Counted from the first letter of the stretch, positions 1,082 to 52,919 are shown. The stretch: DNA of 64,000 nt from Candidatus Latescibacterota bacterium (GCA_965208105.1 OZ242318.1:192001-256000); one strand, 5' to 3'. Notes: generated from the letters alone by a model not told the origin. A program made the numbers and translations.

Positions 1082-2545
1082 TCAAGCCTTGTCAAAGAAG
1101 GTGATCCCCAGGCGGTTGGCGTAGGTGAGTTCCCTGCCTTCGTTGTCGGTCAGGGGGGTGGGCGGAGTCTTGCGGCGGGTGGCCAGGCTGACGAGGACCA
1201 GGGCCAGGGCGGCGAAGGGTACGGCCAGCAGGTCGGCGGGCAGGTCAGGTGTCAGAACCAGGAGGAATTGCCAGGCGGCGAATCCGGTGAAGATGGCGGC
1301 CAGGGCGCCGGGGCCGTTGCTGCGCGGCCACCAGATGCCCGCGGTGAGCGGGACGAAGAGAGTGGCGAGGAGGATGGACCAGGAGTCCACCATCAACTCG
1401 TAGACCGTGGTCTTGTGCAAGGCCAGGACCAGGGCGGCGAGGCCGAGGCCGATGACGGATAGACGAGCCAGGAGCAGGGAGCTTTTCTCGCTTGCCCGGG
1501 GGCGGAAGAACCGCAGCAGGTCCCACCCGACGACGCTGGCCGGCGCCAGCAGGGCGCTGTCGGCGCTGCTGAGCAGGGCCGACACCAGGGCGCCGAGGAA
1601 CAGGACCAGGGCGACCTCAGGCAGGTATTTCATGGCCAGCTCCATCATTACCAGGTCGGGGTCGGCCAGGTTGGGAAGTATGACGGCGCCCGCGATGCCC
1701 AGGAATACCGGCAGAAGGCCGATGGTCACGTAGAGCAGGCCGGCTAGGTAGGCGCTTCTGTAGGCTATGCGCTCGTTCCTGCTGGACAGGCTGCGCTGGA
1801 TCAGGTCCTGGCCGGCCAGGTTCCCCAGGCCGATGACCAGCCAGTCCCGGGCGTAGCTGAACCAGTCCGTGGCGGCGGCCGAGCGCGGAAAGAGGTGGAA
1901 ACGCTCGGCGGGAATTTGTGGCGCCAGGGCGCTCCAGCCGCCCATGTCGGCAAGAAGGAGGGGGGTGATGAAGAGGAGGCCGGCGATGAGGATGAGGACC
2001 TGGAAGAAGTCGGTGAGGGTAACCGCCCACATGCCTCCGGCAAAGGTGTAGAGAAGGACGATGAGGGCGGCGATACCGATCCCCGCAACCGGGTCCAGTC
2101 CGGTCACCGCCTGCAGGATGCGCCCGAAAGCCACCATCAGCGAGGCCACCCAGCCCACGTAGGCGGGGATGGTACAGAGGCTGGCCAGAAGACCCGCGTG
2201 GCGGTTGAAGCGCGCGGTAAAGAACGAGGCCACCGTCATCAGACCCATCCTGCGCATGATGCGGACGTAGAACAGCCCTGCCAGGAACAGACAGAGCGCC
2301 GCGCCGAAAGGGTCGGCGATGACGGCCAGAAAGCCTCCCTCGTAGGCGGCGCTGGCCGCGCCGATGCATATGCCCCCTCCGAACCAGGTCGCCGCCAAAG
2401 TGGCGGTACAGAAAACCAGGGAGAGGCGCTTGCCGGCCACGATGAAGTCCGCCGTGCCGCCGATGCGGCGGCTGGCGTAGAGACCGACGGCCAGGGTGAA
2501 CAGGCAGTAGATGCCCAGACCTGCCAGTACCAGCGGATGGGTCAT
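1082..2545 (-). CDS. Sodium:solute symporter family transporter
   Basis: Many TM segments; DFIVAGK, ATWFGG, YTFAGGMWAVTLTDFFQ, SSADSALLA motifs. Confidence 0.9.
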   Translation of the reverse strand: MTHPLVLAGLGIYCLFTLAVGLYASRRIGGTADFIVAGKRLSLVFCTATLAATWFGGGICIGAASAAYEGGFLAVIADPFGAALCLFLAGLFYVRIMRRMGLMTVASFFTARFNRHAGLLASLCTIPAYVGWVASLMVAFGRILQAVTGLDPVAGIGIAALIVLLYTFAGGMWAVTLTDFFQVLILIAGLLFITPLLLADMGGWSALAPQIPAERFHLFPRSAAATDWFSYARDWLVIGLGNLAGQDLIQRSLSSRNERIAYRSAYLAGLLYVTIGLLPVFLGIAGAVILPNLADPDLVMMELAMKYLPEVALVLFLGALVSALLSSADSALLAPASVVGWDLLRFFRPRASEKSSLLLARLSVIGLGLAALVLALHKTTVYELMVDSWSILLATLFVPLTAGIWWPRSNGPGALAAIFTGFAAWQFLLVLTPDLPADLLAVPFAALALVLVSLATRRKTPPTPLTDNEGRELTYANRLGITFFDKA

Positions 2546-2587: not shown

Positions 2588-2616
2588 AATATAGGTTTGC
2601 CCCGATGCGCGGACAA
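2588..2616 (-). promoter_or_regulatory. Putative sigma70 promoter for the symporter
   Basis: TTGTCC-17 bp-TATATT on the minus strand. Confidence 0.45.
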
Positions 2617-2639
2617 GTTCGAGGCGATTCGCGGAAAAA

Positions 2640-2676
2640 TGGCGAAATCCGCCAGTTGAAATGGCGCTTCAAGCCA
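2640..2676. promoter_or_regulatory. Two tandem palindromic sites, candidate enhancer (UAS) for the sigma54 activator
   Basis: TGGCG-aaatc-CGCCA (2640-2654) and TGGCG-cttca-AGCCA (2662-2676), 22 bp apart, about 90-130 bp upstream of the -24 box. Confidence 0.55.
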
Positions 2677-2766
2677 TAAGCGAAGTTTAAGGAAAAACTA
2701 ATGAATTTCCTATAAACAATTTGGGCACAATTATATACGAGTAATTTCCATCGCGTTTTTGAACTC

Positions 2767-2781
2767 TGGCACATATCTTGC
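2767..2781 (+). promoter_or_regulatory. sigma54 (-24/-12) promoter of the pspA operon
   Basis: TGGCAC-ATATC-TTGC with exact GG-N10-GC spacing, preceded by an AT-rich spacer. Confidence 0.8.
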
Positions 2782-2856
2782 GACTCCCGAAATGGAACTA
2801 TTGTCAAAATTTTAAAGTTTCCATATCATCCACAGGGAAAACAGGAGGGAAGCAGC

Positions 2857-3543
2857 ATGGCTAAAGGGACCTTTTCACGGATGACGGATATCCTCAAGGC
2901 CAACATCAACGAGGTGCTGGACCGCGCCGAAGATCCACAGAAGATGATCCGCCAGATGGTGCGGGAGATGGAGGATGCGGTGAACAAGGCAACCGCCTCG
3001 GTGGGCACGGCGGTGGCCAATCAGAAGCGCCTGGAACGACAGTTCACCGAAAGGATGAACCAGGTGCAGGATTGGCAGCGCAAGGCGGAGCGCGCGGTGG
3101 AGGCCGGGAACGACGAGCTGGGCCGGCGCGCCCTGGAGCGCAAATCCGCCTTTGCCAGGGCTGCGGCTGACCTGGAGCCGGTCCTCGAGGAGAGCCGGCA
3201 GTCCGCTGCCCAGCTCCGGGACCAGTTGCGCGAGCTCAAGACCAGGCTCGAGGAAGCGCGAGCGCGCCAGGGCACCCTGGTGGCCAGGCAGCGGGCTGCC
3301 GAGGCCAAGAAGAAGCTGTCCCAGAGCATATCGGGGCTTGGTACGGACGCCTTTTCCAGCTTTGAGCGCTTCGAGCAGAAGATCGAGGCCGCCGAGGCCG
3401 AAGCCGAGGCCCACGGCGAGATAGCCGGGGAAATGGCTTCGATCGAGAAGGAGGTTGGCCGGCTGGGCCGGGACAAGGAGGTCGAGGAGGAGTTGGCCGC
3501 TCTGAAATCCAGGCTGGGCAAAGGCGAACAGAGTGCGGAGTAG
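2857..3543 (+). CDS. pspA: PspA/IM30 family protein
   Basis: FSRMTDILKANINEVLDRAEDPQKMIRQ N-terminus, long coiled coil, FERFEQKI and VEEELAALK; GGAGG RBS. Confidence 0.95.
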   Translation: MAKGTFSRMTDILKANINEVLDRAEDPQKMIRQMVREMEDAVNKATASVGTAVANQKRLERQFTERMNQVQDWQRKAERAVEAGNDELGRRALERKSAFARAAADLEPVLEESRQSAAQLRDQLRELKTRLEEARARQGTLVARQRAAEAKKKLSQSISGLGTDAFSSFERFEQKIEAAEAEAEAHGEIAGEMASIEKEVGRLGRDKEVEEELAALKSRLGKGEQSAE

Positions 3544-3608
3544 CTGGGGGATAGTCGGGGCAGCCGGCGGGCATGCCGGGCAACCATGAATTCAGGTTGG
3601 GGGAACTT

Positions 3609-4070
3609 ATGGAAGGCGGTCTGAAGCGGCTCGGTGCTTTGTTCCTGAAAGCCTGGGCGGTGGCTCTCATACCCCTGGGGGTGGGAGTGATGCTCTACGG
3701 GTTCTTCAGGAAGCTGGCGCACAATCAGTGGGAAGATCCCCTGTCCATGGGCGTGGCCACGGTGGTCCTGGGAGCGATTCTGTGGGTTCTGGCCAAGAAA
3801 CTGGACGCCGCAGCGCAGCTCGTGCGCTATCGCCGCAGGCAGAACCGCGTCATTCGCCTGGCCAGGAAGTGCGGCGGGCGCCTGACCGCCACCGAGACGG
3901 CGGCGGAGGCGGGGTTGACGGTGGAGGAGGCCGAGGAGATTCTCAAGGGCCTGAGCGAAGGCGGCTACGTGGAGCTCGAGGTGGCGGAGGCGGGGATGAT
4001 GGTCTACAGTTTCCCCGAAGTGCTCTTTGCCCATGAGAAGCACGGCGGCCGGAGGGTCGATGAGGGCTGA
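3609..4070 (+). CDS. Two-TM membrane protein with C-terminal winged-helix-like domain
   Basis: Two hydrophobic helices, then GRLTATETAAEAGLTVEEAEEILKGL...ELEVAEAGMMVYSFP; start could also be 3573. Confidence 0.75.
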   Translation: MEGGLKRLGALFLKAWAVALIPLGVGVMLYGFFRKLAHNQWEDPLSMGVATVVLGAILWVLAKKLDAAAQLVRYRRRQNRVIRLARKCGGRLTATETAAEAGLTVEEAEEILKGLSEGGYVELEVAEAGMMVYSFPEVLFAHEKHGGRRVDEG

Positions 4071-4094
4071 GTCGCAACGAAAAGGAGGAAAATA

Positions 4095-4358
4095 GTGGAA
4101 AATGTGATCGTGCCACTGGCCTTTTTCGCCACCCTGGCCATAATCGTGCTGGGGCTCAGGGCCCTGAGGCTCACCGCAACTCTTCGCGGCGAGGCCCCGA
4201 AGGTTGAAGGAAAGGCCCCGAAGACTGAAGTAAATGCCCTGACGGAAGTCAGGACGAGGCTGGACGAAATCGAGCGGCGTCTAACCGATGTCCAGGACGT
4301 GATGATCTCTCTGAGCGAGAAGTTCGATCGCTGGGAGGAAGGAAGGGCCGCATCCTGA
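4095..4358 (+). CDS. Small single-TM plus coiled-coil protein (PspB-like architecture)
   Basis: AGGAGG RBS before GTG; N-terminal TM; C-terminal heptads VRTRLDEIERRLTDVQDVM. Confidence 0.75.
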   Translation: MENVIVPLAFFATLAIIVLGLRALRLTATLRGEAPKVEGKAPKTEVNALTEVRTRLDEIERRLTDVQDVMISLSEKFDRWEEGRAAS

Positions 4359-4409
4359 TGCGGGGTCGGAAAAGCCCGGCAACCCGGAAAAGCTGGAGGA
4401 GATAGAGAA

Positions 4410-4565
4410 ATGCTGGTCAAGATTCTGGGGGGACTGCTCCTGGTCGTGGGCATCGTGCTGGCCCTGCAGTATGTGTTTTCCCTGCTGATGACGGTCATCT
4501 CGGTGCTTTTCATAGGAGCGTTGATCTACGGGGGCTGGCGCCTCCTCAGCCGCGGGAACGACTGA
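4410..4565 (+). CDS. 51-aa two-TM membrane protein (not in ORF track)
   Basis: GGAGGAG RBS; MLVKILGGLLLVVGIVLALQYVFSLLMTVISVLFIGALIYGGWRLLSRGND*; fills the gap in the operon. Confidence 0.75.
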   Translation: MLVKILGGLLLVVGIVLALQYVFSLLMTVISVLFIGALIYGGWRLLSRGND

Positions 4566-4606
4566 GCGGGCCGCCTGCTTTTCCGGGGCCGGCGAGGGCC
4601 TAATAA

Positions 4607-5869
4607 TTGGTCGAAGACCGCATCGAAGATCTCGAGAAAGCCGCCGCCGCCGGCGAGCTGCAAGCCCATTTCCGCCTGGGATGGGTCTACGCCCGGCAGG
4701 CCAGGCAGAATCCTCCGGCGCGAAAATCGGCGGTCCGCCATTTCGAAGCCATTCTGGAGGCGGCCGCGTCGGGGCAGCCCTGGGATGGGCTGGACGTGGT
4801 CTGCTTCGCTCTCGGCGCCCTCCACGAGGAGGACCCCGAATCCCGTCCCCTGGCCATCGCCGCCTACCGCCGCGGCCTCTCCTTCAACCCTCTTTCAGCC
4901 AGCGGACACAACAGCCTGGGCCTGTTGCTCCTGAGCGGTGGTCAAACTCTGGGGGCATTGGGAGAATTCAAGCTGGCCATCCAGTTGGACCCGGCTCTCC
5001 CCGGTCCATATGCCAATCTGGCCCGGCTCTTCTCGGACCATCTCGAAACGGGGGACCTGGCGCGGGAGTTCCAGCACATCACCGCCGAGTTCGGAGCCAA
5101 CGCCGCGCAGGTCCTGGCGCGTCTCTCCCTCGAACTGGTCAGGGTGGGCAAGGAACAGGTGAGCGAGGGGTTCTACACCTGGGGGCATCGGCTCAAGAAC
5201 TCGGTGGGGATCGCCGGCAGCCGCCTGCGCACCCTGGCGCGCGACGCCGGGGACAGCGGTCCGGGCAGGGAAGAGCTGCTCGAACTGGCGGCTGACCAAG
5301 AGCGCCTCTTCGAGGAATGGGTGGGATATCTCGACGCCATGAAACCGGAGCAGGTCCGTCCGGCCATCGTCGACCCGGTAGCGCTGGTGCGCGGGGTGGT
5401 CGAGACCCTCGAGAGCCGCCCGGGTCGCTCGAGGATCCAGGTCCGGGTCCAGCAAGGGGTGCCTCAGATCGAGGGCGACGAGCGCATGCTGCGCGAGACC
5501 ATCCTCAACCTCTGTCTCAACGCCCTGGAAGCGGCTGGCAGGGCCAGGGGTGAAATCGTCCTCGGGGTGGGCTTCGATGAGGTTCGCAGAGTTCTGTTCA
5601 TCGAGGTCGAGGACGACGGGCCCGGAATTGACCAGGCCCATTTGGACCTGATTTTCGAGCCGGGGTTCACCACCAAGGAGCGCGGCAGCGGCTTCGGTCT
5701 CAGTATAGCGCGCCGCATCGCACATGCCCACGGCGGCGAGCTGCGGGTCAAGAGCCGCGTGGGTCACGGGGCGGTCTTCCGCCTGGATTTGCCGGTGAAT
5801 TTCGAGATTGAGGCCGCCGGAAGTCCCGGAGGCGATTTTCACGGGAGACAGGAGAAGTCCACGGGATGA
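4607..5869 (+). CDS. Soluble TPR-containing sensor histidine kinase
   Basis: N-terminal TPR-like repeats; H-box GHRLKN; N-box NLCLNALEA; DDGPGI, IFEPGFTTK, GSGFGL; no TM segment. Confidence 0.85.
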   Translation: MVEDRIEDLEKAAAAGELQAHFRLGWVYARQARQNPPARKSAVRHFEAILEAAASGQPWDGLDVVCFALGALHEEDPESRPLAIAAYRRGLSFNPLSASGHNSLGLLLLSGGQTLGALGEFKLAIQLDPALPGPYANLARLFSDHLETGDLAREFQHITAEFGANAAQVLARLSLELVRVGKEQVSEGFYTWGHRLKNSVGIAGSRLRTLARDAGDSGPGREELLELAADQERLFEEWVGYLDAMKPEQVRPAIVDPVALVRGVVETLESRPGRSRIQVRVQQGVPQIEGDERMLRETILNLCLNALEAAGRARGEIVLGVGFDEVRRVLFIEVEDDGPGIDQAHLDLIFEPGFTTKERGSGFGLSIARRIAHAHGGELRVKSRVGHGAVFRLDLPVNFEIEAAGSPGGDFHGRQEKSTG

Positions 5870-7293
5870 AGCAGGGCGGTGAAAAATATGTCCTCATTGC
5901 CGACGATCAGCGGGAAGTGCGCGAGCTTCTGGTCCGCAAACTGCGGGCGCGCGGCAAGGAAGTTCTCGACTTTCCCAGCGGTTCGGCCCTGTTGGAGCGC
6001 CTGGGGCAGGCACAGGGCGAGGTGGAGCTCGTGGTCCTCGACCTGGATTTCGGCGCCGGAGAGCCGGACGGGGTCGAGGTGCTCGCCCGGATCAAGGAGA
6101 CGCTTCCCGAGTTGCCGGTCATCATTCTCACCGGCAAGGGCAGCGTGGATACGGCGGTGAATGCGGTCCGGCATGGCGCCGCGGACTTCATAGAGAAGGA
6201 CTACTACGTCGAGGACAAGCTGGATATAAGCATGGAAAAGGTGGAGCGCATGCTCCAGGTCCTGCGCGAGAACGCCCGCCTGAAGGAGGAAAACGAGGCC
6301 CTGGGACGGGACAATGCTTTCTATCGCAGCGAGCTGGGGCGGCGCTACCGCATCGTCAGCGCCAGCCCGGGGATCGAAGCCCTGCTCGAGCAGATAGAGC
6401 GAATCGCTTCCATTCCGAGGCCGGTGCTGATCCGGGGGGAGCGGGGTACGGGAAAGGAGTTGATCGCGGCGGCGCTGCACTATGGCGGCGAGCGCCGCGG
6501 CCGTCCGTTCGTCAAGCTGAATTGTGCGGCTCTCTCGGATACCCTGCTGGAGTCGGAGCTCTTCGGCCACGAAAAGGGCGCGTTCACGGGGGCCGCGGAG
6601 ACGCGCCGGGGCCGCTTCGAGACCGCGGACGGAGGCACCTTGTTCCTCGACGAGGTCGGCAACACATCGGTGGAGTTCCAGAAAAACATTCTCCGGGTAA
6701 TCGAGTACCAGGAATTCGAGCGCATCGGCGGAAACCGCAACATCAGGGTGGATGTCCGGGTGGTGGCGGCAACCAACGCCGATTTGGAGCGGGAGATCGA
6801 AGCCGGCCGCTTCCGCGCCGATTTGTTCGACCGCCTGCGCTTTTCCGTCATCCACCTTCCGCCGCTGCGGGAGCGCCGGGAGGACCTCGGTCCCCTCATC
6901 GAGTATTTCACCACCGAGCTCTGCCGCGAAGTGGCCTCCATCGCCCCCCGGTCCATGAGCCCTGCCGCTCTCCGCTGCGTGCATGCCTATGGCTGGCCGG
7001 GAAACGTGCGCGAACTCAAGTTTGCGGTTGAGCGCGCCCTGTGCGTGGCCCGGGGAGGACGGATCGAGGTGGGCGATTTGCCGCCGGAGGTGCGGGGAGA
7101 TGGAGGCGCCGCCGCTCGGAGCGGAGGATTCGACGCAGAGGTCGGGGAGAAGGAACGGAACTTGCTGATCGGGGCCCTGAAATCGTCCGGAGGGAGCCAG
7201 AAGGATGCGGCACGAGGCCTGGGACTCACCTATGATCGGTTCCGCCACCTGCTGCGCAAGCACGGTTTGGTGGGTGGGCAGCCGGGCTGCTGA
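5866..7293 (+). CDS. sigma54-dependent response regulator (REC + PspF-like AAA+ + Fis-type HTH)
   Basis: REC motifs IADD, LDL, LTG, FIEK; GERGTGKE, GAFTGA, LFLDE, WPGNVREL; ATGA overlap with the kinase. Confidence 0.93.
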   Translation: MKQGGEKYVLIADDQREVRELLVRKLRARGKEVLDFPSGSALLERLGQAQGEVELVVLDLDFGAGEPDGVEVLARIKETLPELPVIILTGKGSVDTAVNAVRHGAADFIEKDYYVEDKLDISMEKVERMLQVLRENARLKEENEALGRDNAFYRSELGRRYRIVSASPGIEALLEQIERIASIPRPVLIRGERGTGKELIAAALHYGGERRGRPFVKLNCAALSDTLLESELFGHEKGAFTGAAETRRGRFETADGGTLFLDEVGNTSVEFQKNILRVIEYQEFERIGGNRNIRVDVRVVAATNADLEREIEAGRFRADLFDRLRFSVIHLPPLRERREDLGPLIEYFTTELCREVASIAPRSMSPAALRCVHAYGWPGNVRELKFAVERALCVARGGRIEVGDLPPEVRGDGGAAARSGGFDAEVGEKERNLLIGALKSSGGSQKDAARGLGLTYDRFRHLLRKHGLVGGQPGC

Positions 7294-7380
7294 AGCTGCG
7301 CTCTCCACCATCCTGACCAGGCCCTGGTTTTGGTTGGTAAAGCATTGTATAGAATGTAGTTCAAAGGAAACGGCGGCGGG

Positions 7381-7409
7381 TTGACAAGGCCCCGGGCCCC
7401 GCGTATATT
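7381..7409 (+). promoter_or_regulatory. sigma70 promoter for iscU-sod-prx
   Basis: TTGACA-17 bp-TATATT. Confidence 0.7.
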
Positions 7410-7470
7410 GTTGAAAATTGCAACCGGATTCAGGGGCATTTTCGACCTTTTCGAAAGGGCTGTGGCCGCC

Positions 7471-7848
7471 TTGGCTCTCTATAACGACATCGTCCTGGAC
7501 CACTACCAGAACCCGCGCAACGTGGGCATCCTCGAAGATGCCGACGCCGTGGCCACGGTGGAGAATTCGGCCTGTGGCGACGTGCTTCAGCTCTACCTCG
7601 AAATCGAGGCCGGGCGGGTTGTGCGCGCCGCCTTCAAGACCTTCGGTTGTGCGGCGGCCATCGCGGCCGGGTCCATGCTCACCGAGATGATCGAAGGGGC
7701 CACCCTGAAGGAGATCGAGAAGCTGCGCAAAGAGGACGTAGCCTCGGCCCTGGGAGGACTGCCGCCCATGAAGATGCATTGCTCGGTGCTGGCCGAAGAT
7801 GCCATTCAGGCAGCGCTGCAGCATTATCGTTCAAGGGCCGGGAGCTGA
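7471..7848 (+). CDS. iscU: Fe-S cluster scaffold protein IscU/NifU-N
   Basis: YNDIVLDHYQNPRNVG, ACGD, FKTFGC, LPPMKMHCSVLAEDA; TTG start inferred. Confidence 0.9.
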   Translation: MALYNDIVLDHYQNPRNVGILEDADAVATVENSACGDVLQLYLEIEAGRVVRAAFKTFGCAAAIAAGSMLTEMIEGATLKEIEKLRKEDVASALGGLPPMKMHCSVLAEDAIQAALQHYRSRAGS

Positions 7849-7904: not shown

Positions 7905-8513
7905 ATGGCTCACACTCTTCCCGATCTTCCCTATGGCTACGACGCGCTCGAACCTCACATCGACGCCCGTACCATGGAGATCCACCACGGCAAGCACCAC
8001 AATACCTACATCACCAACTTGAACGCCGCCCTGGAAGGGCATTCCGGCCTCGCGGCAAGGGGCATAGATGACCTCATCGCCGATCTGGATTCCGTCCCCG
8101 AAGATATCCGCACCGCGGTGCGCAACAACGGGGGCGGCCACGCCAATCACAGCCTGTTCTGGACCGTCATGAGCGGCAGCGGCGGGTCCCCGAGCGCGGA
8201 CCTCGCGGCCGCCATCGACAGCGACCTGGGCGGCATGGATTCCTTCAAGGAAAAATTCTCCACGGCCGGGACCACGCGCTTCGGCAGCGGCTGGGCCTGG
8301 CTGGTGGTCAAGGGAGGCAGCCTCGATGTGCTCAGCACTCCCAACCAGGACAACCCGGTCATGAGCGGAGACGGCACGCCCATCCTCGGCCTGGACGTCT
8401 GGGAGCACGCCTACTATTTGAACTACCAGAATCGCCGACCGGACTATATCGCGGCCTGGTGGAATGTGGTCAACTGGGACGAAGTGTCGTCGCGCTTCGC
8501 CGCCGCGAAATAG
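7905..8513 (+). CDS. sodA: Superoxide dismutase (probably Mn-type)
   Basis: [31 protein letters not shown]. Confidence 0.95.
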
Positions 8514-8528
8514 ATTAGGAGGCCATAA

Positions 8529-8996
8529 ATGACTCTGCAAGTGGGGGATAAAGCCCCTGATTTCACTCTCAAGAACACCGATATGGAAGATGTCAGCCTG
8601 AGTTCCTTCCAGGGTAGGAACGTGGTCCTGCTCTTCGTTCCGCTGGCCTTCACCGGCGTGTGCACCGAGGAGCTGTGCGAGGTGTCTCAGGGTCTCAACA
8701 CCTATGGCGAGCTGGGCGCCGAAGTCCTGGGAATTAGCGTGGACAGCCCCTTCAGTCTGCAGGCCTGGGCCGCCAAGGAGGGAATCTCCTTGACCCTGTT
8801 GAGCGATTTCAACAAGGAGGTTTCCGCGGCCTACGGGGCCCAGTACGAGGACCTTATCGGATTCAAGGGGGTGGCCAAGCGTTCCGCCTTCGTGGTCGAC
8901 CGGCAGGGGGTTGTGCGCTACGCCTCCATATCCGACGACCCCAAGGTTCTTCCCGACTTTCAGGCTGTCAAAGCCTGCCTTCAGTCATTGAACTGA
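8529..8996 (+). CDS. Peroxiredoxin (AhpC/TSA, AhpE-like)
   Basis: [44 protein letters not shown]. Confidence 0.9.
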
Positions 8997-14919: not shown

Positions 14920-17196
14920 TTGTCCGCAGCGTTGAAAATCGAAAAGGCGGCGGTCCTGGGCGCGGGTGTCATGGGCAGCCAGATCTCCGCCCTGCTGGCC
15001 AACGCCGGTCTTCAGGTCGACCTCCTGGACGTGCCGCAGGACGGAGATGGCACCGGTCTGGCGCGGGCGGGCATCGAGCGCTCCCTTAAAGGGCGGCCGC
15101 CCGCTTTCTTCCTGCCGTCCATGGCGCGGCGGATCGTTCCCGGCAGCCTGGAAGACCTGGACGGCCTGGCTGAGGTGGATTGGGTCATCGAGGCCATCGT
15201 CGAAGATTTGCCTGCCAAGAAGGCTCTGCTCGCCAGGGTGGACGAGGTGGCCGGACCCGACCTCGTCATCAGCAGCAATACCTCGGGATTGTCCGTCAAC
15301 GCCCTGGTCGAGGACTGCTCCGCCAACCTGAGGAAACGTTTTCTGGGGACCCATTTCTTCAACCCTCCGCGCTACATGAAACTGGTCGAAATCGTCCCGG
15401 GGGCCGATACCGACCCGGGTATGCTCGAGGGAATGAAGCGGTTCCTGCGCGAGGAGTTGGGCAAGAGCGTTGTGGAAGCGCTGGATACCCCCAACTTCAT
15501 CGCCAACCGCCTGGGAATATTCACCCTCATGGAGGCCCTGCAGCGGATGGAGCGCGAGGGACTCGGGGTCGAGGAGGTGGATGCGGCCACCGGACCCCTG
15601 CTGGGAAGGCCTGCCAGCGCGACCCTGCGGCTGTGCGATATCATCGGGCTGGATACCCTGCTGCAGGTAGCCCGCACCGGCTACGAGAACCTGCCGGAAG
15701 ACAGTGGCAGGGAGGTCATGCAGGCTCCCGGTTTTGTGCGCGGCATGGTGCGCAGGGGGTTGCTGGGGGCAAAGGCCGGAGCCGGGTTCTATCGCAAGAC
15801 GAAATCCGGGATCGATGCCCTGGACCTGGAAACCTTAAGCTACCGGGCGATGAGACCGGCGGATCTGGGTGAGCTCCGGAAGGTGGGAAAGGGTGCGGAC
15901 CTGGGTTCGCGTCTGCAGGCGGTGTGGGACGACCAGGGGAAGCTGGGGGCCTATGGCCGCGCGAATCTCCTGCAGGTGCTGGCCTACGCCGCCGACCACG
16001 CCGCCGATATGGCCTCCGACATCCTCCAGGTGGACCGCGCCATGAGGTGGGGGTTCAACTGGGAGGCGGGACCATTCGAGCTGTGGGACCTGCTGGGGGT
16101 TGAAAGGGTGGCCTCCCGCATCGAGGCGGTGGCCGGCAGGACTCCCCACCTGGCGCATCTGCTCCAGGCTGCCGAAAAAGATCGGTTCTACCGGGAGAGC
16201 TCCGGCCGTCGCTGGTTCTTTGCTCCGGCCAGGGGGGAATACGCCGCGGTGAAAGAGAGTTCCGTGCTGCCGGGCAAGGCTCGGGTTCTACTGGAGAACG
16301 AGGGGGCCCGCCTGCTCGAGATGGAGGACGGCATAGGCCTCCTGGTTCTGCAGGGCAAGATGAACGCCGTGGGTCCTGCCACCCTGGACCTGCTGCGGCG
16401 CATCGGGGAGGAGCAGCCCTGTTCCGGGCTGGTGCTGAGCGGGACGGGAGGTTTGTTCTCGGTGGGAGCGGATCTCAAGTACCTTTTGGGCCTGATCGAC
16501 AACCTCGACTGGAATGGCATCGAGTCCTTCCTGCGCGCCTTTCAGGATGCCGTCACGGGGTTGCGCTACGCCCCCTTCCCGGTGGTGGCGGCCCCGCGGG
16601 GCATGGCCCTGGGCGGGGGATGCGAGTTCTGCATGGGGTCCGACGCCAGGGTCGCTGCGGCGGAGCTGCGCATGGGCCTGGTGGAGACCCGGGTGGGGTT
16701 GATCCCGGGGGCAGGCGGTTGCATGGAGGTGGTGAGAAGCTGGACAGATGACCCCGGATCGGGGTTCGACCTGGTTTTCTCCGGCAGGATCTCCGACAAC
16801 GCGCACCAGGCCAGGGACTGGCGATTGCTTCGCCGCGAAGACCCCGTTCTCATGAGCCCCGACCGACTGCTGCCGAGGGCGCTGGAGGAAATCAGGAAAC
16901 GGGCGGCTGGCTACGATCCCCCCGTTCGCGCTCTCCTGCCCGTTGCCGGCAGCGCCGGACTCCGGGAGCTCGAGGAGCGGATGGAGTCCCGGGCCGGGGA
17001 GCTCGCCCCCTACGACCGGGTCGTGGGACGCGCCCTCGCGCGCGTCCTGTGCGGGGGAGAGGGTCCGCCGAGGCGCGTGAAGGAGCAAGAGTTGCTGGAT
17101 CTGGAGCGCGAATCCTTCCTGCATCTGTGCGGCCAGGAACAGACGCGGGCGCGAATGGCGCACATGTTGAAAACGGGCAAACCCCTGAGGAATTAG
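14920..17196 (+). CDS. 3-hydroxyacyl-CoA dehydrogenase / enoyl-CoA hydratase family protein (FadN-like)
   Basis: VLGAGVMG, EAIVE, SNTSG, HFFNPPRYMKLVE, DTPNFIANR, ALGGGCE, C-terminal TGKPLRN. Confidence 0.92.
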   Translation: MSAALKIEKAAVLGAGVMGSQISALLANAGLQVDLLDVPQDGDGTGLARAGIERSLKGRPPAFFLPSMARRIVPGSLEDLDGLAEVDWVIEAIVEDLPAKKALLARVDEVAGPDLVISSNTSGLSVNALVEDCSANLRKRFLGTHFFNPPRYMKLVEIVPGADTDPGMLEGMKRFLREELGKSVVEALDTPNFIANRLGIFTLMEALQRMEREGLGVEEVDAATGPLLGRPASATLRLCDIIGLDTLLQVARTGYENLPEDSGREVMQAPGFVRGMVRRGLLGAKAGAGFYRKTKSGIDALDLETLSYRAMRPADLGELRKVGKGADLGSRLQAVWDDQGKLGAYGRANLLQVLAYAADHAADMASDILQVDRAMRWGFNWEAGPFELWDLLGVERVASRIEAVAGRTPHLAHLLQAAEKDRFYRESSGRRWFFAPARGEYAAVKESSVLPGKARVLLENEGARLLEMEDGIGLLVLQGKMNAVGPATLDLLRRIGEEQPCSGLVLSGTGGLFSVGADLKYLLGLIDNLDWNGIESFLRAFQDAVTGLRYAPFPVVAAPRGMALGGGCEFCMGSDARVAAAELRMGLVETRVGLIPGAGGCMEVVRSWTDDPGSGFDLVFSGRISDNAHQARDWRLLRREDPVLMSPDRLLPRALEEIRKRAAGYDPPVRALLPVAGSAGLRELEERMESRAGELAPYDRVVGRALARVLCGGEGPPRRVKEQELLDLERESFLHLCGQEQTRARMAHMLKTGKPLRN

Positions 17197-51542: not shown

Positions 51543-52919
51543 ATGCAACTTCTGCGCCAGCTCGAAACAGTCGCCGAGCCTGACGTCCTGGTGGTGGGGG
51601 CGGGGTGCGCCGGCACCACCGCGGCCATTGCCGCGGCGCGGCGCGGGGCGCGCACCATGGTGGTGGAGCGCTGCGGCTTCGCGGGGGGCTACATAACCGC
51701 GGTGGTGGGACCCGCCCTGGACGGATTCGTCGACCTGCGCTCCGGTCTTCCGGTGGTGGGCGGCCTGGTCCTGGAGCTGGCGCGGAAGGCGGCCCGCACC
51801 AGCGCCGCCGGAGACCTCGCCGGTACCCGCTTCCACTTCAACGTCGAAATCGGCCAGATGCGCGGGGCGGAGCACAGGGTCCCCATCCGCTTCGACGTCG
51901 AGCGCTTCAAGCTCGAGGCCGACCGCGCGCTGCGCGCCGCCGGGGTGCGGGTGCTCTACCACACGGTGGTCGCCGACGTGGAGCGCAGGGGCGACCGCGT
52001 AACCGCGGTTGTCCTGGCCAACAAGAAGGGACTCACCGCGGTAAAGCCCCGCTGCGTTGTGGACGCCAGTGGAGACGCCGACGTGGCGGCCTTTGCCGGA
52101 GCCCCCTTCGATCTGGGCCCCGATCCGCTGCAGCCCATGAGCCTGCATTTTCGCGCAGGTCCCCTGGTCCCAAGCACGGACTTGCGCCGGCGCTGTGGAG
52201 AGGTGCTGGAAGAGGCCCACCGGGAAGGGCGGCTGGGCCTCTACGCCGGACCCTGGATGTCCGAGGTGGAGGCGGACAATCTCTACTTCAACGCCACCCG
52301 CATCAGCGGCAATCCCCTCGATCCCGACGATCTGAGCAGAGCCGAGATGCAGGGGCGCGAAGACGCGCGGCTGATGTTCGAGCTTTTCAAGGAGAAGATA
52401 CCCCAGTTCAAGGACGCCTGCTTCACCGCCAGCGGCCCCATGGTGGGGGTGCGCGAGTCGCGCCGCATCCGCGCCGCCGCGACCCTGAGGCTGGCGGACA
52501 TCGAGCGGCAGCGCGGCTGCGACGACGTTGTATGCCTGGGCGCCTGGTGGCTGGACCGCCATCCGCAGGACAGCTCCGGCTACCATGCCCACACCATGGT
52601 GCGGCCCTACGACATCTCCTATGGTACCCTGGTGCCGCGGGAGCTGGCCAACGTCTGGGTGGCGGGGCGCTGCCACGGCGCCGAGCCTGCCGCCCTGGCC
52701 TCGAGCCGGGTCACCGTAACCTGCATGGGCATGGGACAGGCGGCTGGAACGGCGGCTGCCCTTGCCGTTGCCGCCGGCTGCGACGCCCCGGAGGTGGATA
52801 CAGGACGGCTGCAGGCGAACCTGGTTGCCGATGGGGCGATCATCCTGGAACGCGCCGACGCCGTGCGCAAGGTGGGGGACGAGCTCGCCGTGGAGGAGAG
52901 CGGCTGGGCGTCGCGTTGA
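51543..52919 (+). CDS. FAD-dependent oxidoreductase
   Basis: DVLVVGAGCAG, VDASGDADVA, GVRESRRI, NVWVAGRC, CMGMGQAAG. Confidence 0.9.
   Translation: MQLLRQLETVAEPDVLVVGAGCAGTTAAIAAARRGARTMVVERCGFAGGYITAVVGPALDGFVDLRSGLPVVGGLVLELARKAARTSAAGDLAGTRFHFNVEIGQMRGAEHRVPIRFDVERFKLEADRALRAAGVRVLYHTVVADVERRGDRVTAVVLANKKGLTAVKPRCVVDASGDADVAAFAGAPFDLGPDPLQPMSLHFRAGPLVPSTDLRRRCGEVLEEAHREGRLGLYAGPWMSEVEADNLYFNATRISGNPLDPDDLSRAEMQGREDARLMFELFKEKIPQFKDACFTASGPMVGVRESRRIRAAATLRLADIERQRGCDDVVCLGAWWLDRHPQDSSGYHAHTMVRPYDISYGTLVPRELANVWVAGRCHGAEPAALASSRVTVTCMGMGQAAGTAAALAVAAGCDAPEVDTGRLQANLVADGAIILERADAVRKVGDELAVEESGWASR

Follow-up and report, generated by a model that had tools for sequence, protein, structure and literature searches.

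A pspA gene cluster of 'Candidatus Latescibacterota' with a predicted sigma-54 promoter, a TPR histidine kinase and a PspF-like response regulator

Introduction

The regulation of PspA/IM30 is known in detail for three model wirings only, namely the antagonism between PspF and PspA, LiaFSR and ClgR. Beyond these models, a survey of phage-shock protein (Psp) systems mentions NtrC-like variants with ACT and PAS domains (PMC11237479), histidine kinases have been noted in actinobacterial pspA operons (PMC9239133), and a phage-shock regulon of Desulfovibrio vulgaris has been assigned by co-localisation and motif discovery (PMC4641369); PspF outside the Enterobacteriaceae is regarded as hard to assign (PMC9239133). 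Here we report a cluster of six genes at positions 2640-7293 of a 64,000-nt stretch of DNA from a 'Candidatus Latescibacterota' bacterium (GCA_965208105.1, OZ242318.1:192001-256000), which was analysed as a whole and is called the window. The cluster begins with pspA behind a predicted sigma-54 promoter, continues with genes for three small membrane proteins (p165, p87 and p51), and ends with genes for a soluble histidine kinase with tetratricopeptide repeats (TPR) and for a sigma-54 activator with a receiver (REC) domain and a PspF-like core. It is probably a Psp-type envelope-stress operon under autoregulation, with phosphorylation in place of, or in addition to, the antagonism between PspA and PspF.

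No description of a REC-bearing PspF-like activator together with a TPR kinase beside pspA was found in the available parts of the literature (including PMC9239133, PMC11237479, PMC4641369, PMC3162934, PMC12316311 and PMC3041696), and the supplements of PMC9239133 and PMC11237479 may list such neighbourhoods. A literature search on PspA of Latescibacteria returned no paper.

Organization of the cluster

The host genome consists of one contig of 4.85 Mb with a G + C content of 61.6%, a completeness of 93.9% and a contamination of 8.1%. The cluster sits between a divergent sodium:solute symporter (SSS) gene (1082-2545, minus strand) and a NifU/IscU-like gene (7381-7848). Its genes are co-oriented in the order pspA, p165, p87, p51, TPR histidine kinase and REC-AAA+-HTH_8 regulator, with successive intergenic gaps of 29, 24, 51, 41 and -4 nt. 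The sigma-54 promoter, the paired palindromes and the six co-oriented genes proposed in an initial annotation of the window were each found in place, and the features are as follows.

2640-2654, no strand assigned: distal enhancer dyad TGGCGAAATCCGCCA (TGGC-N7-GCCA), predicted, of a type (TGGY-N7-RCCA) kept upstream of pspA in relatives
2662-2676, no strand assigned: proximal enhancer dyad TGGCGCTTCAAGCCA (TGGC-N7-GCCA), predicted, 22 bp from the distal dyad and 105 nt upstream of the promoter element
2677-2766, no strand assigned: AT-rich spacer of 90 nt with 31% G + C, presumed bending region between enhancer and promoter
2767-2781, plus strand: sigma-54 promoter (-24/-12) TGGCACatatcTTGC, a perfect match to the pattern TGGCAC-N5-TTGC
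2801-2829, plus strand: sigma-70-like match TTGTCA-17-TATCAT (10 of 12 positions in a consensus scan), candidate basal promoter
2857-3543, plus strand: pspA, 228 aa, PspA/IM30 (bacterial ESCRT-III) family, PF04012
3573-4070, plus strand: p165, membrane protein with two transmembrane (TM) segments and a candidate winged-helix-like C-terminal domain
4095-4358, plus strand: p87, single-pass membrane protein with the C-terminal motif RL-x2-IE-x-RLTDVQDVMIALSEK-x-DR
4410-4565, plus strand: p51, 51 aa, two-TM hairpin protein with two hydrophobic segments
4607-5869, plus strand: soluble histidine kinase, 420 aa, with an N-terminal TPR-like sensor, a putative dimerisation and histidine phosphotransfer (DHp) domain with His194 (GH-x-LKN), and HATPase_c
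5866-7293, plus strand: response regulator and sigma-54 activator, 475 aa, with REC (Asp59), a helical linker, AAA+ (GAFTGA) and HTH_8

On the plus strand inside the operon, the only intrinsic terminator called by a terminator scan is a weak one in the coding sequence of p51.

Conservation and distribution

A scan guided by motifs, with each prokaryotic species represented by one genome, gave 54 loci, mostly in metagenome-assembled genomes of 'Candidatus Latescibacterota', of which 48 carry a kinase at the level of an orthologue (49-75% identity). Loci L049-L054, with weak TPR or kinase-only matches at 30-39% identity, are not orthologues and were left out; also left out of the counts were L029, L038, L039 and L046, whose contigs end before pspA, and L055-L058 and L069-L071, which concern other questions. 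The regulator lies downstream of the kinase in 47 of the 48 f1-type loci, the exception (L045) ending inside the kinase at a contig end. Likewise, pspA and p165 lie upstream of the kinase in 44 of the 48, the exceptions being the contig ends L029, L038, L039 and L046.

The two other families that carry the cluster, f3 and f4, have different surroundings. In all ten f3/f4 loci sampled, the kinase (43-47% identical) and the regulator lie within 7 kb of pspA-p165-p87-p51, with one to four p87 copies, and the flanks hold a LysM amidase and a SpoIIE phosphatase instead of SSS, NifU and superoxide dismutase (SOD). The two halves of the cluster are set apart by genes for an extracytoplasmic function (ECF) sigma factor, an unnamed 230-aa protein, possibly the anti-sigma factor of the former, and an SPFH/Band-7 protein (L060 4857-7748, L062 6884-7567), so that the whole forms an envelope-stress island of larger size. 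The expectation that relatives would keep the kinase and the regulator beside pspA was borne out in every related locus that reaches far enough. The proposal of one six-gene operon stands for the window's genus and fails for f3/f4, where the genes for the ECF sigma factor and the Band-7 protein separate the membrane-protein genes from the kinase; a gap of about 170-220 nt precedes the kinase in many f1 loci.

Among 168 genomes of the phylum, the kinase was found in 99 (49 of 75 in f1, 21 of 22 in f3, 28 of 31 in f4, and none of 39 in the other eleven families). Both p165 and the p87 module were found in 101 of the 168 genomes, with the same family-level distribution (f1, f3 and f4; 0 of 39 in the eleven others). 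The kinase and p165 occur together in 98 genomes; the kinase stands by itself only in G149, at a contig edge, and p165 occurs without the kinase in three fragmented assemblies (G063, G075 and G163). Several complete single-contig f1 genomes (e.g. G099 and G103) lack the kinase, p165 and p87. It is on this conservation, and not on the single window, that the view of the locus as more than a chance arrangement is based.

One divergent arrangement was seen on a 9-kb contig (L048 6931-8889): a pspA with only 44% identity along its length is joined directly to the sequence for the 75 C-terminal residues of the kinase, and the regulator comes next. With p165, p87 and the greater part of the kinase gone, this is either a deletion variant or an assembly artefact. 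At least half of the sampled words of positions 2600-7400 are present in nine sequencing runs. The DNA occurs mainly in sponge metagenomes, which come from several studies, and this occurrence points to a sponge-associated lineage.

Promoter and enhancer dyads

The sigma-54 pattern at 2767-2781 is the only perfect match within the window. When one mismatch is allowed, the pattern matches three times against 4.68 expected, so that the pattern alone is not significant; the other two matches (15048-15062, plus strand; 51545-51559, minus strand) are within chance expectation. The upstream regions of pspA in the window, in 44 f1-type loci and in the ten f3/f4 loci all contain a GGCAY-N5-TTGC element 60-140 nt upstream of pspA (55/55). 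Paired TGGY-N7-RCCA dyads, 20-23 bp apart, are present in 41 of these 55 regions, a single dyad in ten and none in four, one of which (L002) has just 133 nt of upstream sequence; mononucleotide shuffles of the upstream regions gave no dyad pair (0/11,000). The proximal dyad stands 90-105 nt from the promoter element. From lineage to lineage the 7-nt spacers vary and the half-sites are retained, which is the pattern of a protein-binding site. Since no strict consensus for integration host factor was found in 2546-2856 (neither WATCAR-N4-TTR nor a looser form matched), a bending role of the AT-rich spacer is only presumed.

The whole genome contains 263 single dyads, two dyad pairs and 24 strict sigma-54 promoters, and encodes one sigma-54 gene (rpoN). 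Only the pspA promoter, among these 24, has a dyad pair upstream, and the second genomic pair, at 1,096,518, is not near any strict sigma-54 promoter. With pspA as the sole promoter with paired dyads, the regulon looks like a single operon.

Regulator and histidine kinase

The regulator consists of Response_reg (residues 9-114), Sigma54_activat, AAA_lid_14 and HTH_8 domains, its AAA+ part contains GAFTGA and Walker motifs, and its gene shares its first 4 nt with the end of the kinase gene. In 39 regulators, the receiver residues Asp13, Asp14, Asp59, Thr89 and Lys111 are invariant or nearly so. The protein thus has the features of an NtrC-family two-component sigma-54 activator, including an adjacent cognate kinase. 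The linker between receiver and AAA+ domain has about 45 residues, and the best full-length structural relatives are the Aquifex NtrC-family proteins 4l4u and 1ny5; by analogy with NtrC1 and DctD, the AAA+ domain may be kept inactive by the receiver as long as the latter is unphosphorylated.

The genome encodes 12 strong bacterial enhancer-binding proteins (bEBPs), among which the regulator is the best match of PspF from E. coli K-12 (255 bits, against 228 for the next), with 46% identity over residues 18-325, the HTH included. Its AAA+ part scores 355.4 bits with the NCBIfam PspF model TIGR02974, which is under the cut-off of 443.55 and about equal to its score with the NtrC model over the whole protein. 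When the AAA+ core was compared with solved structures, NifA gave 265 bits, PspF 256 and ZraR 239; the named proteins that match the regulator and the kinase best include ZraR and ZraS, with all scores far below the equivalog cut-offs. The position aligned to Trp56 of E. coli PspF is Arg (HYLSSRWQGPF versus HYGGERRGRPF; alignment to 2vii/2bjw). In PspF, this Trp is required for the binding of PspA and for inhibition by it. The label REC-PspF given in the initial annotation has modest support as a statement of orthology: the regulator is the best PspF match of the 12 bEBPs, but it falls below the PspF cut-off and NifA scores as high. By these comparisons the core of the regulator is PspF-like, the protein is not a demonstrable orthologue of PspF, and the known docking residue for PspA is lost. 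A reading as part of a defence system was rejected; PADLOC gave generic bEBP homology (RtcR_PspF models) and weak coiled-coil matches only.

The kinase contains an HATPase_c domain (Pfam, E 1.3e-23) and no hydrophobic segment, the maximum Kyte-Doolittle mean over 19 residues being 1.08. An alignment of 24 kinases shows no variation in His194, in the N, G1, F and G2 boxes or in a stretch of the TPR part (NPLS-x-GHN-x-LG ... FK-x-A-x-QLDP), and His194 precedes the N box by about 107-111 residues. A total of 624 homologues was found. In the window's genus the kinase has its shortest form (420 aa), with a TTG start (4607) right after two stop codons; most relatives have kinases of 450-530 aa with a longer N-terminal TPR array.

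PspA and its neighbours

PspA matches PF04012 over residues 5-221 (E 1.5e-48; 165.7 bits, cut-off 33.9) and scores 168 bits with TIGR02977, under the equivalog cut-off; it is 35% identical to E. coli PspA and 67-85% identical among 16 relatives. Neither PspB (PF06667) nor PspC (PF04024) gave a match in the whole 4.85-Mb genome (93.9% complete), in a search that detected the E. coli control, and no PspB, PspC, PspD or PspE domain was found among the cluster proteins. The lack of a recognisable pspC, noted earlier for the cluster, extends to PspB and PspC domains genome-wide.

A second PspA paralogue lies outside the window (G000:C1:356755-357441; L057 1495-2202), in the order DnaJ-domain protein, CesT_Tir_1/YbjN-like protein, PspA and flavin amine oxidase. 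With the pattern used, no strict sigma-54 promoter with dyads was found near it. CesT_Tir is named among the themes of PspA neighbourhoods (PMC11237479).

None of p165, p87 and p51 belongs to a Pfam or NCBIfam family. The true start of p165 is probably the ATG at 3600, as in its closest relatives, and its hydrophobic segments span about residues 20-38 and 55-73. The 70 C-terminal residues, which are highly conserved, give sub-threshold matches to winged helix-turn-helix (wHTH) families in many of the 23 members compared (DUF7343 in 16, HTH_IclR in 14, TrmB in 14, SelB-wing in 13 and MarR_2 in 11), and a p165 profile matched the wHTH protein 1sfx in the PDB weakly (E 0.041). All 129 homologues of p165 are unnamed or 'hypothetical', and one homologue (P0182) in the Protein Atlas matched only unnamed clusters, apart from leads to MarR/IclR and PCI at 0.87, which are leads only. 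Profile matches to BetP (E of about 0.001) cover the two TM segments and a basic helix; they were judged to be driven by composition, and a relationship to BetP was rejected.

The p87 protein, encoded by one to four copies in each cluster, has a single N-terminal hydrophobic segment, and its conserved part is the C-terminal motif. A derivation from PspB was not supported: hhalign gave a probability of 23.9% and aligned only the linker, and one of 22 members matched the PspB model (E 0.043), so that p87 resembles PspB in architecture only. One DNA run (X5) has a 21-nt deletion at 4215, in the p87 linker, and represents a related strain. A profile search of 1.84 billion representatives with the p87 module returned 257 clusters at E <= 0.001, whose members yielded no protein names, and eight of the ten long matches that were scanned contain a CBM9-like domain. 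Two of these fusions consist of a signal peptide, a CBM9-like domain, a coiled region, a TM segment and the p87 motif at the extreme C-terminus, a domain order that places the motif in the cytoplasm. Genome G157 has two CBM9 proteins encoded between another PspA paralogue, which they follow directly, and a Toastrack/LiaF-like protein (L070 3466-8801), and the C-terminal p87 motif was located in one of the two (L070 5952-6173). In G161, a PspA-domain protein of 415 aa is followed by one protein with the p87 motif and one that is CBM9-like (L071 2275-6321). The presence of the p87 module beside PspA in two types of cluster is independent support for a role as a partner of PspA.

For p51, 13 distinct orthologues were found in related f1 loci and tblastn matches in nine of the ten f3/f4 loci.

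Proposed mechanism and alternatives

The initial annotation regarded the cluster as a hybrid in which a sigma-54/PspF-like output is under two-component control and has its own membrane partners, and the conserved pair, the promoter and the dyads support this reading. We propose that dimers of the NtrC-type regulator would occupy both TGGC-N7-GCCA dyads, which lie about 100 nt ahead of the sigma-54 promoter, and that phosphorylation of Asp59 by the adjacent TPR kinase would yield an active AAA+ ring that opens the promoter. Judged by sequence, it is likely that the promoter is activated in this way, by regulator bound at the dyads and phosphorylated at Asp59 by this kinase. The promoter would drive pspA, the three membrane-protein genes and, in the window's genus, the kinase and regulator genes; read-through into the last two would amount to positive autoregulation in that genus, with basal expression perhaps provided by the match at 2801-2829. 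PspA would be the effector, and p165, p87 and p51 would serve as lineage-specific membrane partners in roles like those of PspB/PspC, LiaI or PspM.

Because the kinase has no membrane segment, the state of the membrane must be read indirectly, and the likeliest route would be binding of its TPR domain to free PspA or to the conserved cytoplasmic parts of p165 or p87. Binding of PspA, a titration feedback analogous to that of PspA and PspF, is a tentative suggestion, and so, to the same degree, is binding of the cytoplasmic winged helix of p165 or of the p87 tail. Also tentative is a combined scheme, in which the cluster would represent a new set of PspA partners and a new logic of sensing. In it, p165 and p87 would act as adaptors of PspA at the membrane, and the soluble TPR kinase would bind either to their cytoplasmic tails or to free PspA; when PspA moves to damaged membrane, a switch of partners would lead to phosphorylation of the PspF-like activator. 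In such a scheme, p165 could be likened to the winged-helix ESCRT-II subunits that nucleate ESCRT-III, and the p87 module could be described as a single-pass 'TM + RLTDxQDVMIALSEKxDR', sometimes fused to extracytoplasmic CBM9-like domains.

Several observations weigh against the proposed circuit. A clean dyad pair is absent from 14 of the 55 upstream regions under the pattern used, and one genus contributes about 29 near-identical regions of the 55, so that the counts overstate independence and the independent observations are far fewer than 55. The SSS, NifU and SOD flanks are also conserved in f1, which makes synteny there weak evidence alone, and in f3/f4 other genes, spanning 1-5 kb, stand between pspA and the kinase-regulator pair. 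The kinase gave no match to Pfam HisKA, and its DHp domain and phospho-accepting His are accordingly assigned by motif and spacing. In G157, neither the TPR kinase nor p165 was found at the thresholds used; p87-module proteins occur there all the same, which shows a module independent of the kinase. The pair could have a promoter of its own and further targets, and the sensing step is inferred. In a metatranscriptome run (X20, share 0.07), contigs of 140-230 nt with a depth of 2-4 cover parts of p165, the kinase, the regulator and the spacer between regulator and nifU; they show neither a transcript nor co-transcription, DNA carry-over is possible, and the uncovered parts prove nothing.

Phosphorylation of the receiver might also be only one of two inputs, with PspA still binding and inhibiting the AAA+ domain as in E. 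coli; the system would then be the canonical PspA-PspF feedback to which a kinase has been added. Such dual control would suit a regulator whose AAA+/HTH core is the most PspF-like of the 12 bEBPs (355 bits with the PspF model, 255 bits with PspF structures), and the promoter is followed first by pspA, which matches the order in E. coli. The Arg in place of Trp56 speaks against it, as do the score below the PspF equivalog cut-off and the equally high score of NifA, and we consider it unlikely, although PspA might use a different interface.

It is very improbable that the kinase and the regulator are mere neighbours of pspA, which would then be served by another bEBP while the pair controls something else. 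The genome does offer 12 strong bEBPs and 24 strict sigma-54 promoters, synteny is conserved generally in f1, and other genes separate the pair from pspA in f3/f4. Against this, the linkage survives a complete change of flanking genes, the phyletic profiles of the kinase, p165 and p87 are nearly identical, no other strict sigma-54 promoter of the genome has a dyad pair, and the regulator is the most PspF-like bEBP.

Least probable of all is that p165 is the actual transcription factor, a membrane-tethered winged-helix DNA-binding protein to which the two-component system is secondary: its conserved domain repeatedly gives weak matches to DNA-binding wHTH families (HTH_IclR and TrmB in 14 of 23 members each, MarR_2 in 11 of 23), but every one is under the Pfam cut-off, winged helices also serve as protein-binding modules, the dyads stand at the classical distance of an enhancer, and p165 is not the AAA+ activator that a sigma-54 promoter requires.

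Downstream region

Just past the regulator stop, at about 7317-7331, there is a short hairpin followed by a T-run, which is too weak for the terminator scan. The NifU/IscU-like scaffold gene (from 7381) comes next, and the listed start of this open reading frame (ORF) falls within a strong sigma-70-like match, TTGACA-17-TATATT (7381-7409). It is followed by ORFs of 202 aa (7905-8513) and 155 aa (8529-8996), which we take, from reading the sequence and without a domain scan, to encode a superoxide dismutase and a peroxiredoxin, respectively. NifU and the SOD-like gene hold the same position downstream in most f1 loci.

Comparison with known systems

The cluster shares with the enterobacterial Psp system (pspF divergent from pspABCDE, and pspG; E. 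coli and Yersinia) a sigma-54 promoter that has activator sites upstream and an AT-rich spacer, and that is followed by a PspA/IM30 gene in first position (PMC9239133, PMC11237479). Also common to both are an activator with a GAFTGA-containing AAA+ core and a Fis-type HTH, and small membrane proteins encoded directly downstream of pspA. The enterobacterial activator PspF is divergently transcribed and has no regulatory N-terminal domain, whereas the activator described here has a receiver and a cognate kinase, is co-oriented at the 3' end, and carries Arg at the position of Trp56; PspB and PspC are absent from this genome. The presence of REC, the co-oriented 3' position of the regulator and the lack of PspB and PspC had been listed as differences in the initial annotation, and all of them hold.

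With LiaIH-LiaGFSR of Bacillus subtilis and its relatives, the cluster has in common a PspA homologue with a small membrane anchor and a two-component system in the same locus (PMC9239133, PMC11237479). In that system, LiaR is a sigma-70-type REC-HTH regulator, LiaS a membrane kinase and LiaF a Toastrack inhibitor, whereas the cluster has a sigma-54 bEBP regulator, a TPR kinase without TM segments, and no Toastrack/LiaF (DUF4097) domain in its six proteins; a Toastrack protein does occur in the other cluster of PspA and the p87 module, in G157. ZraPSR of E. coli and Salmonella likewise directs an envelope-stress output through a kinase and a REC-AAA+-HTH sigma-54 activator, but its effector is the periplasmic protein ZraP, not PspA, and ZraS is a membrane kinase. 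The Desulfovibrio vulgaris locus DVU2989 (PspF)-DVU2988-2986 is also a sigma-54 phage-shock regulon outside the Gammaproteobacteria, but its activator is a single-component enhancer-binding protein without an N-terminal domain and is divergently transcribed (PMC4641369).

The cluster would represent a fourth wiring, conserved over three families of an uncultured phylum, which joins a sigma-54 output as in proteobacteria with two-component logic as in Firmicutes and a cytoplasmic TPR kinase. As a by-product, it adds three unnamed families of PspA-linked membrane proteins, of which the p87 module has 257 representative clusters. Because all parts are small and the promoter is predicted to depend on sigma-54, the circuit should be reconstitutable in E. 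coli, which would make it testable what a soluble kinase reads in a membrane-stress response. Compared with the model systems, the finding extends the known regulation of Psp and does not overturn it.

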